2,045 bases of DNA from Naegleria gruberi (lineage: Eukaryota). The translations under genes and the position numbers were made by a program. Positions 1 through 2,045 of the stretch are shown one piece after another. How positions within the stretch are numbered: the stretch's first letter is position 1; each line of letters opens with the position of its first letter. The stretch lies in assembly GCA_000004985.1 (NCBI GenBank), contig GG739294.1. One strand, 5' to 3'. The notes under the pieces were generated by a model. It ran no database searches, was not told the origin of the DNA, and saw nothing but the letters and a program-made list of their open reading frames with translations.

Positions 1-161
1 CATGATTTTATTCAATTTTCTAAAAATGAAATTTTAATTTCTTTAAATAATCAAAATTTAATTATTTTAAATTTAATTGATTATTTAAAATGATTTCATA
101 AATTGTTTAATTAAATAATAATAAAATATTAGTATTATATTTAAAATATTATTATTTAAAA

Positions 162-761
162 TTAATCCCAATCATCTTGATCTTGAATATTTGCAATATT
201 TTCCATTTTTCTATTTTTAAATCTATTATCATCATCATCATGTTCATAATAGGAAATATTTAAATTTGTATCCCAAACTTCAATAAAATGATCATTTCCA
301 GCAGAAAATAAAAATTGATTTTTTTCATCTAAACATAGACATTTAATTGAATCATAATGAATTTCTGATAAAGTTTTAATTTTTTTTCCATTAAATTTAT
401 CAAATAATTCAATTCTATTAAAAGAAGCATGAAATAAAATATCACCTTCTGATTCTTCAATTAAATGACATGATGTCTTGTTATTATTTATAATATTACA
501 ATTATATTGTGTATTTTTACCATTTGATACTATCCATTTCATTAATTTATTATCATTACTTGAACTATATATATATTGTCCACATTTGGAAAATTTAATA
601 CTATTTATAGATTGATTATGTGCTATTGGTACTTTAACATTGGAATAATTATATGATTTACTTGTTGAAAATCCAACTTGTTGTGTTTTTCTTTTTTCAA
701 TTCTATTTTTTACATTATTTATATTTGAATTATTATTATTTAAATTATTTAAATTATTATT
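162..761 (-). CDS. C-terminal portion of a WD40-repeat protein. It is partial and the 5' boundary is unresolved: the first ATG is at 540-542, but the frame stays open up to 761.
   Basis: The stop TAA is the reverse complement of 162-164. The listed 126-aa ORF contains a canonical WD blade ending (LFSAGNDHFIEVWD) and an acidic tail (HDDDD...QDDWD). By hand translation the same frame stays open for 73 more codons above the ATG (543-761). That stretch reads ...VKVPIAHNQSINSIKFSKCGQYIYSSSNDNKLMKWIV, which is itself a WD repeat (H-x..-F-S-x-G-x-Y-x-S-S-S-x-D-x-x-x-x-W). Coding therefore almost certainly extends upstream of M542. The in-frame stop (minus TGA) sits at 762-764, exactly where the AT-only run 705-761 ends, so the true 5' end is probably an intron acceptor. 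Minus AG candidates are at 704/703 and 692/691. Confidence 0.7.
   Translation of the reverse strand, partial: NNNLNNLNNNNSNINNVKNRIEKRKTQQVGFSTSKSYNYSNVKVPIAHNQSINSIKFSKCGQYIYSSSNDNKLMKWIVSNGKNTQYNCNIINNNKTSCHLIEESEGDILFHASFNRIELFDKFNGKKIKTLSEIHYDSIKCLCLDEKNQFLFSAGNDHFIEVWDTNLNISYYEHDDDDNRFKNRKMENIANIQDQDDWD
228..241 (-). repeat. (ATC)4 on the plus strand, which is (GAT)n on the minus strand and encodes the DDDD run in the acidic C-terminal tail of the WD40 protein.
   Basis: Plus 228-241 reads atcatcatcatcat. The minus frame gives HDDDDN. Confidence 0.85.
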
Positions 762-1013
762 TCATTCGTTTGTACTTGTTTGAACGCATGTGCTCCAAGG
801 CTTTGAAAACCACCATCACTCAACATATATTTAACCACCATCACTCTGCTCCCTGAATCACAGTACAGTGCGGTGAGGGCAGTAGTAATGATAATGATGA
901 GCACTTGGGAATCAACTATACATTAATCATGCATTTCAAAAAAAAAACATCACACCTCTCTGAGAGATCTAAAGAACTTCATCACACTAGAACATTTAAT
1001 AGATTCACACTCA
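762..1013. promoter_or_regulatory. An unusually G+C-richer, C/A-rich (plus strand) block between the 5' side of the minus WD40 ORF and the plus ORF at 1014. It is a candidate divergent promoter or regulatory region with CA-rich or G-box-like elements.
   Basis: By hand count 781-900 is roughly 40-47% G+C, against near-pure AT in the neighbouring spacers (1-161, 705-761, 1428-1603). The plus strand is C/A-rich with few G in 805-860. It holds a 14-bp perfect direct repeat and CATCAC at 814-819, 839-844, 949-954 and 980-985. TCACAC/ATCACA variants occur at 857-862 and 1005-1010. An A10 run lies at 938-947. No ORF is convincing on either strand; the segment TAGTAATGATAATGATGA at about 882-900 places stops in one plus frame repeatedly. 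Confidence 0.35.
808..846. repeat. Perfect 14-bp direct repeat AACCACCATCACTC at 808-821 and 833-846, separated by an 11-bp AT spacer (AACATATATTT). Copies are 25 bp apart start to start.
   Basis: Read directly from the sequence. On the minus strand each copy reads GAGTGATGGTGGTT, a GT-rich, G-box-like sequence. Confidence 0.85.
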
Positions 1014-1427
1014 ATGATGTTCAACAAGAAGACAATAACTAATCCAATTAATAATATTATTATAATGAGTATACTATTAACATTGTGTATTATAATATTA
1101 CCTAATAAGCATGTAATACATTGTAAAGTATTGTGTAACTATAATGGAGATTGTTCATTAAGATATTATTTATCTTCAATTGAAAATGAATATACTAAAT
1201 TATATTTATTACATTCTCAATTAGATAGTTATATTAATATTTTAAATGTAAAGAATGCAACTTTATATGAAACTGAAATTTTACAAAGGAGAAATCAATT
1301 AAAACAAATTAAAGAAAATCAAAGAACATTATTATTTGATATTCATTCATTAAAAAGAAAATGTTATTTGAATGATGGTGATAATTGTGATATTCCAATA
1401 ATATTACAAAAAATAGAAATTACATGA
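1014..1427 (+). CDS. Hypothetical small protein of 137 aa with an N-terminal hydrophobic signal peptide or signal anchor and six cysteines. It may be secreted or a type II membrane protein.
   Basis: This is a complete ORF from ATGATG to TGA. Codon usage is Dictyostelium-like (AAA, AAT, ATT, TTA, CAA, GAA, AGA, TGT) without collapsing into pure low complexity. A hydrophobic run IIIMSILLTLCIIIL follows a 16-residue polar N-region. Cysteine spacing is C-x3-C-x5-C and C-x7-C. A predicted helical, charged segment ETEILQRRNQLKQIKENQRTLLFDIHSLKRK follows. The start context (tcaATGATGt) is not the typical A-rich one, which lowers confidence. Confidence 0.5.
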   Translation: MMFNKKTITNPINNIIIMSILLTLCIIILPNKHVIHCKVLCNYNGDCSLRYYLSSIENEYTKLYLLHSQLDSYINILNVKNATLYETEILQRRNQLKQIKENQRTLLFDIHSLKRKCYLNDGDNCDIPIILQKIEIT

Positions 1428-1501
1428 AACTATTTATTAAGAATATTAAATGTAATATATATCTACTCATTAGAGTTTCAATACTCTATTATTATATATT
1501 T

Positions 1502-1515
1502 GGAAAGAAATTTCC
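1502..1515. promoter_or_regulatory. Short palindrome GGAAA-gaaa-TTTCC containing GAAnnTTC (a heat-shock-element-like core) about 90 bp upstream of the 1604 ATG.
   Basis: GGAAA (1502-1506) and TTTCC (1511-1515) are reverse complements. GAAatTTC lies at 1507-1514. It is the only G/C-containing island in an otherwise AT-only spacer. Confidence 0.25.
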
Positions 1516-1531
1516 GTTTTACTGTAAATTA

Positions 1532-1558
1532 CATCATTAAGCATCATTAAGGATTAAG
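1532..1558. repeat. Tandem direct repeat (CATCATTAAG)x2 followed by a partial third unit GATTAAG. It lies 45-70 bp upstream of the ATG at 1604 and is a candidate promoter element.
   Basis: 1532-1541 and 1542-1551 are identical 10-mers. ATTAAG occurs three times in 27 bp. Confidence 0.7.
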
Positions 1559-1567
1559 TTCTTTTGT

Positions 1568-1573
1568 AATAAA
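1568..1573 (+). other. AATAAA hexamer, a possible polyadenylation signal for the 1014-1427 gene, about 140 nt past its stop.
   Basis: The motif is present, but in DNA this AT-rich AATAAA arises by chance and it lies only about 30 nt before the next gene's ATG. A second candidate for the minus gene is plus TTTATT at 7-12. Confidence 0.2.
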
Positions 1574-1603
1574 TAACATTCAATTTCAATAATTTATAAA
1601 AAA

Positions 1604-2045
1604 ATGTCATTTCTCTATCTAGTACATAAATATTCTCAACCTCAAACAGCCTCATCATCACCTGTTGATGAATTAAAATCTCCGAGAATGTCTAATCAAC
1701 AACAACAACAACAAGATTTAAAATCACCAAAAGGAGGAGCCAATAATAATAATAGAAATAAACCAACATCACCCAATACAAAAACCAATAATTCTGAAAA
1801 GGAACATGAGCCTCCAAAACCCATTGAAGAAGTAATATTATTAAATTATGATATGGATAAAAGTATTGTATTATTAGATAAAATTAAGGAAATGTGTTGT
1901 TTTCAAGATGTTGAACATTTAGATTTAGTTAATTTTAAAACAGGTGAATGTGTAATGATACATTTAGATCCATTTGCTCCTGGTTCTAAATATTTAAAAA
2001 AAGGTGAAAAATATTTTCCATGTAAAGTAATAATACAAACAATAC
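1604..2045 (+). CDS. Hypothetical protein, 5' part only; the ORF runs off the window end. It has an S/N/Q-rich, probably disordered N-terminus with SP motifs, then a compact globular-looking domain.
   Basis: The ATG is at 1604-1606 in the classic aaaaaaATG context, with an in-frame TAA at 1574-1576 upstream. The frame is open for 147 codons to the window end. Hand translation gives MSFLYLVHKYSQPQTASSSPVDELKSPRMSNQQQQQQDLKSPKGGANNNNRNKPTSPNTKTNNSEKEHEPPKPIEEVILLNYDMDKSIVLLDKIKEMCCFQDVEHLDLVNFKTGECVMIHLDPFAPGSKYLKKGEKYFPCKVIIQTI. The in-frame (CAA)6 and (AAT)4 tracts are typical of Dictyostelium coding sequence. Confidence 0.65.
   Translation, partial: MSFLYLVHKYSQPQTASSSPVDELKSPRMSNQQQQQQDLKSPKGGANNNNRNKPTSPNTKTNNSEKEHEPPKPIEEVILLNYDMDKSIVLLDKIKEMCCFQDVEHLDLVNFKTGECVMIHLDPFAPGSKYLKKGEKYFPCKVIIQTI
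1697..1714 (+). repeat. (CAA)6 in-frame trinucleotide repeat encoding Q6. The nearby (AAT)4 at 1742-1753 encodes N4.
   Basis: Read directly. Its frame matches the ATG at 1604 because 1697-1604 is divisible by 3. Confidence 0.9.

Follow-up and report, generated by a model that had tools for sequence, protein, structure and literature searches.

A C-terminal ERCC8/CSA-like WD40 gene fragment without its 5′ part in a Naegleria gruberi contig

Human ERCC8/CSA (Cockayne syndrome A; PDB 4A11, 7OO3) serves transcription-coupled repair as the substrate receptor of the CRL4-CSA ubiquitin ligase, and in the DDB1-CSA structure (PDB 4A11) its N-terminal helix-loop-helix segment docks on DDB1. Complete, seven-blade-sized orthologues are encoded by single, uninterrupted open reading frames (ORFs) in Naegleria fowleri (522 amino acids, aa; protein P0005, at 4802–6370 of locus L002) and N. 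lovaniensis (591 aa; C9374_002287, P0006), and a third (P0021) has 470 aa. Here we describe a 2,045-nucleotide (nt) stretch of contig GG739294.1 (N. gruberi, assembly GCA_000004985.1), the whole of which we call the window. The minus-strand frame at 162–761 in this window, as judged by sequence comparison, encodes the C-terminal third of an ERCC8/CSA-like WD40 protein (blades WD5 to WD7 and an acidic ...DQDDWD tail), and breaks off at 762.

The open frame at 162–761 and its relatives

The frame runs on the minus strand from a TGA at 764–762 down to a TAA at 164–162, as 199 uninterrupted codons plus the stop (translation of 162–842, ...QTSTNE*NNNLNNLNNNNSNINNVKNRIEKRKTQQVGFSTSKSYNYSNVKVPIAHNQSINSIKFSKCGQYIYSSSNDNKLMKW...DQDDWD*). 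No ATG, GTG or TTG occurs in it ahead of the ATG at 542–540, the start of a 126-aa ORF; a preliminary description, made from the letters of the window, had remarked that the frame stays open from 542 up to 761 and encodes a WD blade upstream of M542. Translation, a Pfam repeat at 626–534 and orthologue matches all bear this out. That the 73 codons at 761–543, which read NNNLNNLNNNNSNINNVKNRIEKRKTQQVGFSTSKSYNYSNVKVPIAHNQSINSIKFSKCGQYIYSSSNDNKL, are not open by chance follows from shuffling, the WD40 score and the orthologue matches. When their 219 bases were shuffled (mononucleotide), the frame remained open in 20 of 100,000 trials. Against Pfam WD40 (PF00400; gathering threshold, 27 bits) the 199-aa frame scored 46.9 bits over two stretches, with at least one repeat above the threshold, as expected of a WD40 family member; the top repeat (aa 46–76, the repeat at 626–534) lies almost wholly upstream of M542. 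The ATG-initiated 126-aa ORF by itself scored 22.9 bits, below the cut-off. The features of the frame on which the argument rests are:

534–632, minus strand: WD blade equivalent to WD5, VPIAHNQSINSIKFSKCGQYIYSSSNDNKLMKW, spanning the first ATG (Pfam stretch and orthologue alignment)
702–761, minus strand: asparagine-rich, AT-only low-complexity run with in-frame AAT periodicity, the remainder of the WD4–WD5 linker
762–764, minus strand: frame-closing TGA, which is the breakpoint (translation and composition step)

An exhaustive HMMER search among 1.84 billion representatives gave P0021 as the top match, aligned at its residues 300–468; when the 199-aa frame itself was the query of a protein search by word index, which limits sensitivity, no match was returned. 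When the N. fowleri protein was compared with the window by tblastn, only its aa 348–503 matched, at 701–255, with 42% identity (E 2e-35). The preliminary description had proposed a search for the full-length orthologue with the 543–761 translation, and this stretch alone proved colinear with all three orthologues (62% identity, E 8e-19; 51%, E 3e-18; 58%, E 2e-15), aligning to residues 344–400 of 522 in N. fowleri, 427–469 of 591 in N. lovaniensis and 294–350 of 470 in P0021. Over 176 ungapped C-terminal columns of a four-way alignment, the window product is 41.5–47% identical to the three orthologues, and P0021 is 47–49% identical to the two Naegleria proteins; the window fragment retains 54 of the 80 positions that are invariant across the three.

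The link to ERCC8 was direct as well as through the orthologues. In a phmmer search of PDB, aa 27–163 of the fragment aligned in a single stretch with residues 241–377 of the 396 of human ERCC8 (E 1.3e-11), a segment that we take, from the UniProt repeat annotation, to comprise WD5 to WD7 and the start of the acidic tail. For the N. fowleri protein, the top specific solved relative was likewise human ERCC8/CSA (E 7.7e-34, PDB), and a JGI protein named ERCC-8 was found among its homologues. With ERCC8 as top specific relative and the matched part colinear, the sequence evidence argues for orthology.

Within the alignment, the blade at 534–632 pairs with VPLAHNDHINSLCFAHDGQYLFSSSNDRRMMKW of N. 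fowleri and with the equivalent stretches of P0006 and P0021, and M542 (M74 of the 199-aa frame) is the second M of a MMKW motif and is invariant in all four aligned sequences. By this comparison M542 is a conserved internal methionine of blade 5 and not a start codon, which is why the frame reads open above its first ATG. With M542 internal and orthologues of 470–591 aa, the 126-aa ORF is, as the preliminary description had maintained, not the whole protein.

The breakpoint at 762 and candidate 5′ ends

Similarity to the orthologues begins at I21 (window 701), right after their linker. Upstream of this lies a stretch of 57 nt made up of A and T only (705–761), through which the AAT periodicity continues in frame as far as the codon next to the TGA, so that the breakpoint lies inside what was formerly coding sequence. 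The composition changes sharply at the same place, from 3–7% GC across 700–759 to 40–55% across 760–880; the preliminary description had noted that the frame meets TGA 764–762 exactly where the AT-only run joins a GC-richer block, and both translation and composition agree. Comparison with the orthologues places the break at 762 in the low-complexity sequence that links WD4 to WD5.

The 5′ truncation at about 762 that had been suggested also stands: only the last ~155 aligned residues of the orthologues and the tail are matched, and the first 300–420 residues, the number varying by orthologue, are missing from the window. We detected no similarity in the window to aa 1–347 of the N. fowleri protein, 1–420 of the N. 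lovaniensis protein or 1–300 of P0021, and neither the ERCC8 N-terminal part nor a dynamin, the gene next to ERCC8 in Naegleria, was found on either strand of 762–1603 (tblastn and tblastx, E up to 5–50).

Reading through the TGA at 764–762 would yield just 21 more codons with no ATG; the next in-frame stops beyond it are TGA 818–816 and TAA 829–827, with no in-frame ATG between them. TGA as a sense codon was considered and rejected: about 600 conserved codons contain no in-frame TGA, tryptophan is encoded by TGG in three of three cases, and the stop of the conserved genes is a TAA placed as in their orthologues, which fits the standard code. As a separate observation, two ORFs in the window stop at TGA (91–93 and 1425–1427), and the conserved genes seen here all stop at TAA.

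Could the fragment be a living, shortened gene, with a three-blade C-terminal module expressed from a new 5′ end? We regard this as improbable. Its start would be either a first exon spliced from the GC-richer block (816–776 with an intron at 775–703, or similar) or the ATG at 841 in the minus-strand frame 904–752. The first route is the intron model of the preliminary description, whose coordinates we could reproduce (ATG 816, donor 775, acceptor 703, 73-nt intron, 193-aa product) with correct GT-AG borders and phase. Specific support for it did not emerge, however, and it is one of 95 equally possible models. Exhaustive enumeration upstream gave 95 ATG/GT/AG combinations that splice into the frame free of stops, with uninterrupted products of 133–198 aa, which is in itself favourable to a living gene, but none of them stands out or adds sequence with homology: the new N-terminal peptides match nothing. 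The donor GTACAA, moreover, poorly matches those that we reconstructed from four N. lovaniensis introns of 52–119 nt using annotated gene ranges (GTAAGT, GTATGT, GTAACG and GTTTGA), sharing only GTA with three of the four. The proposed 775–703 intron carries the in-frame AAT periodicity and continues the linker of the orthologues.

For the second route, the frame 904–752, which crosses the breakpoint, has 51 codons free of stops, among them ATG 841 and ATG 826. If the AAA run at 761–759 were read with a fourth A, be it that sequencing missed one or that a real −1 shift occurs, this frame would be fused to the ERCC8 frame. A 51-codon open frame is, however, not rare in sequence of 40% GC (roughly 4% per frame by chance, by our own estimate). 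In favour of a living gene in general, the frame is intact and conserved right up to the junction; under selection this would be expected even if the event were not recent. Against it, three blades lacking the DDB1-binding segment cannot make a CSA-type propeller (PDB 4A11), and in an AlphaFold model of low confidence the fragment is unfolded (mean pLDDT, the predicted local distance difference test score, 36.9; about 11 strands).

Gene order and a possible local deletion or replacement

The neighbouring genes provided an independent view of the truncation. In N. fowleri the order is a beta-propeller gene (plus strand), the 522-aa WD40 gene (minus), a dynamin gene (minus), an Il2rg-like gene (plus) and Ku70 (minus), and gene order in N. 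lovaniensis is identical. The window, together with a metagenome contig that extends it (ENA ERZ929261 k127_146106; locus L001), instead shows the 3′ part of ERCC8, the GC-richer block, a 137-codon ORF (ORF137), the Il2rg-like gene and Ku70, with orientations as in Naegleria. The fragment thus keeps the Naegleria position, convergent with its neighbour at the 3′ end and preceded upstream by the Il2rg-like and Ku70 genes, but the dynamin gene is missing between the ERCC8 part and the Il2rg-like gene. The further features of the window are:

1–93, plus strand: 3′ end of a convergent gene (…NLIILNLIDYLK, stop TGA 91–93), in the place of the Naegleria beta-propeller gene
762–1013, strand not assigned: GC-richer block of 252 base pairs (bp), with 33–55% GC in a window of 22% GC, between the truncated gene and ORF137
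808–821 and 833–846, plus strand: AACCACCATCACTC, two perfect 14-nt copies as a direct repeat, 25 nt apart
1014–1427, plus strand: ORF137, an orphan of 137 codons with a hydrophobic N-terminus, occupying part of the position of dynamin in Naegleria
1604–2045, plus strand: 5′ part of the PF15874 (Il2rg-like) gene (Pfam 22.4 bits, weak), the synteny anchor on the right

The metagenome contig equals window 1100–2045 at 98% nucleotide identity and extends into the C-terminus of a Ku70 that is 54% identical to that of N. fowleri. The Il2rg-like product of the window is 99% identical to that of the metagenome contig (P0001) and 50% to that of N. fowleri (P0003), and the small gene adjoins Ku70 head-to-tail in both Naegleria species and in the metagenome contig (L001 510–1157; L002 10001–10612; N. 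lovaniensis locus L003 7072–6515). PF15874 bears the family name 'putative interleukin-2 receptor gamma chain'; the gene carries a variable poly-glutamine tract, and the window and the metagenome contig differ in it by a 3-nt indel at 1697–1699. The metagenome contig begins inside ORF137, its position 1 corresponding to window 1100, a limit that may stem from low coverage immediately to the right of the GC-richer block or from a branch in the assembly graph, through strain polymorphism or a repeat. On the left, the gene end at 1–93 corresponds in position to L002 3391–4638 and L003 11911–13083, and the similarity is too short to score; past TGA 91–93 its frame continues W/FHKLFN*, with a loose likeness to the Naegleria C-terminus ...ILHKIRIPH.

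Since these neighbours are 47–54% identical to Naegleria proteins in conserved order and the gene itself is heterolobosean, the dictyostelid affinity that the preliminary description had assumed was not upheld. The comparison of synteny that it had called for, which we made with Naegleria, showed that 762–1603 takes the place of the 5′ two-thirds of ERCC8, the intergenic spacer and dynamin, which together span roughly 3.5–4 kilobases (kb) there. It had also noted that about 250 bp remain before the next gene on the opposite strand, in agreement with the 252 bp up to the ORF at 1014, and had considered 5′ exons far upstream with this ORF nested among them. The latter finds no room, because the conserved Il2rg-like and Ku70 genes follow next upstream.

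The reading that we tentatively prefer, while giving it a little less than an even chance, is that a real local deletion or replacement left a 5′-truncated ERCC8/CSA relic at 162–761. Such an event would have broken the gene within the low-complexity linker between WD4 and WD5 and, by comparison with Naegleria, would have deleted or replaced roughly 3.5–4 kb, with the loss of blades 1–4, the N-terminal DDB1-binding segment and the adjacent dynamin gene, and would have left the GC-richer block and ORF137 beside the conserved Il2rg-like and Ku70 genes. With no start codon, no DDB1-binding segment and three of the seven blades, the remnant could not act as the substrate receptor of CRL4-CSA, and its sequence makes a lack of function most likely. 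The event would have to be recent, because the frame of 199 codons is intact where stop codons arise easily. In simulations of neutral, AT-biased change, the probability that the frame survives was 0.14–0.38 at 2% divergence, 0.01–0.10 at 5% and at most 0.013 at 10%, so that the event should be of about the same age as the divergence of the window from the metagenome contig (2%).

Alternatively, the join could be an artefact of assembly or amplification, with a complete ERCC8 and dynamin in the real genome and a contig that skipped the ~3.5–4 kb, either by collapse or mis-join at the (AAT)n-like run 705–761 or because whole-genome amplification produced a chimeric molecule. We consider this unlikely, although several features fit it: the junction lies exactly at the end of the 57-nt AT-only run and coincides with an abrupt composition step, the fragment is free of any decay, and the sole related contig is a short metagenomic one that ends in ORF137 at 1100, as if the locus assembles poorly. 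However, a mis-join at low-complexity k-mers should link random loci, whereas the two sides joined here are those that synteny predicts, and in the right orientation; the AT run was seen once only in the window, and no dynamin or ERCC8 N-terminal sequence adjoins the junction. A local event is favoured over a random mis-join since both flanks are syntenic and a chimeric join made at random would not recreate their order.

Also to be weighed is a split or relocated gene, with the N-terminal four blades moved elsewhere together with dynamin and the protein restored by trans-splicing, by a very long intron or as two polypeptides. This we judge very unlikely. The support for it is indirect: the fragment is intact, the linker that holds the break is long and little conserved, so that a propeller could withstand a cut there, and propellers completed in trans are known (Sec13-Nup145C). 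Yet between the TGA and the conserved sequence there is no acceptor whose use would spare the frame a stop; with the nearest upstream AG, the TGA is still read in frame. The genes that follow upstream belong to the conserved neighbourhood, and no N-terminal fragment from an AT-rich organism was present among the homologues of the full-length protein. We also know of no trans-splicing of coding exons in relatives of Naegleria.

Four points weigh against a local deletion or replacement. No independent sequence crosses the junction: the metagenome contig starts at 1100, and scans of JGI, IMG/VR and GTDB (a protein pattern in JGI metagenomes, DNA 20-mers in all three collections and proteins in IMG/VR) were empty. 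The intact frame and the 54 retained invariant positions fit a still-functional gene equally well, and a neutral remnant needs a very recent event. The search for the N-terminal part covered the window, and this part may exist elsewhere in the genome. Finally, a deletion leaves the origin of the GC-richer block unexplained.

That block lies in a window of 22% GC. The GC content of Willaertia, the sister of Naegleria, is 24.8% (PMC6892926), and that of Naegleria 33–37% (PMC12482156); by this measure the window would fit Willaertia better. A block of this kind in a genome of 22% GC would be either constrained or recently acquired. No transfer RNA gene was found in it, and Rfam matches were at noise level (snoR79, 20.3 bits with a threshold of 80; snoZ267, 15.8 bits with a threshold of 43). 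Matches to box C/D small nucleolar RNAs (snoRNAs) fell below threshold on both strands (snoR79 at 879–932, plus; snoZ267 at 848–806, minus; SNORD83 at 958–874, minus). We looked for a C box (RUGAUGA) and a D box (CUGA) joined by a terminal stem and scoring above the Rfam gathering threshold, and rejected a snoRNA on finding a lone C/D pair (894 and 960, plus strand) with a 1-bp terminal stem and these sub-threshold scores. Folding of the block was no more stable than that of shuffled sequences (z-scores +1.15 and −0.13). It has no nucleotide similarity to the Naegleria loci and no match in DNA 20-mer scans of IMG/VR, JGI and GTDB, and contamination from a vector, plasmid or phage was dismissed for lack of a match in plasmid or phage collections. 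A third copy of AACCACCATCACTC, at 86% identity, lies within coding sequence at 1761–1774; the repeat may be a regulatory element or due to chance.

ORF137 belongs to no Pfam family and has no homologue in the Naegleria loci, and exact look-ups of it and of the 126-aa ORF gave no record. It also has cysteine-rich and coiled-coil-like parts. Against the metagenome contig it shows three non-synonymous changes, one synonymous change and, right ahead of the stop, a 5-nt insertion by which the final codons are altered; its sequence thus seems weakly constrained, yet a 137-codon frame is improbable by chance at this composition. Inverted repeats flanking 720–1399 were rejected as transposon ends, as their arms are 19 nt at 84% identity, which is usual at this composition: the window holds 53 such pairs. 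Near N. lovaniensis ERCC8, about 2.4 kb downstream, lies a DDE transposase gene (L003 14170–15426; PF01609/PF13359), which points to mobile elements active in the neighbourhood. Between N. fowleri ERCC8 and dynamin, a 62-aa ORF of low complexity rich in glycine and valine (L002 6463–6651) is probably spurious.

Comparison with known systems

For annotation, the locus is an ERCC8/CSA fragment, rather than a 126-aa WD40 protein starting at M542, and calls for no invented intron. If the truncation is biological, the CSA arm of transcription-coupled repair would have been lost recently in the lineage or strain, along with a dynamin paralogue, a small point that comparative genomics of Naegleria and Willaertia could check. 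As an artefact, it would exemplify a mis-join at a poly-asparagine (AAT) run, a typical hazard in assemblies of very AT-rich eukaryotes.

By sequence and position the fragment falls in the ERCC8/CSA orthologue group, but it departs from the structural definition of the protein: about three blades are encoded instead of a seven-blade closed propeller in one polypeptide, and the DDB1-docking N-terminal helix-loop-helix and blades 1–4 are absent. Set against human ERCC8, it is colinear over 241–377 and lacks WD1 to WD4, the DDB1-binding segment and a start codon, while an acidic C-terminal tail containing tryptophan is common to both. The heterolobosean orthologues have a long low-complexity insert between WD4 and WD5, unlike human ERCC8, which has none.

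In Sec13-Nup145C and Seh1-Nup85, propellers are completed in trans, and in principle another polypeptide could likewise supply the blades that are missing here; this is a resemblance only. It is highly doubtful that a three-blade CSA module persists as an expressed gene after fission, be it with a new first exon or by trans-complementing a separate four-blade half, the sole positive hint being the intact, conserved frame of 199 codons in a genome prone to stops. The closer likeness is to truncated gene relics (unitary or partial pseudogenes that arise at deletion breakpoints), which share with the fragment an abrupt end of homology and composition, the lack of a start codon and flanking synteny. 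The fragment differs from them in carrying no disabling mutation in its 199 codons, which requires either a very recent event or residual function. Altogether, a truncated gene fragment at a breakpoint is of a well-known kind, adding no new gene structure and leaving knowledge of WD40 proteins unchanged.

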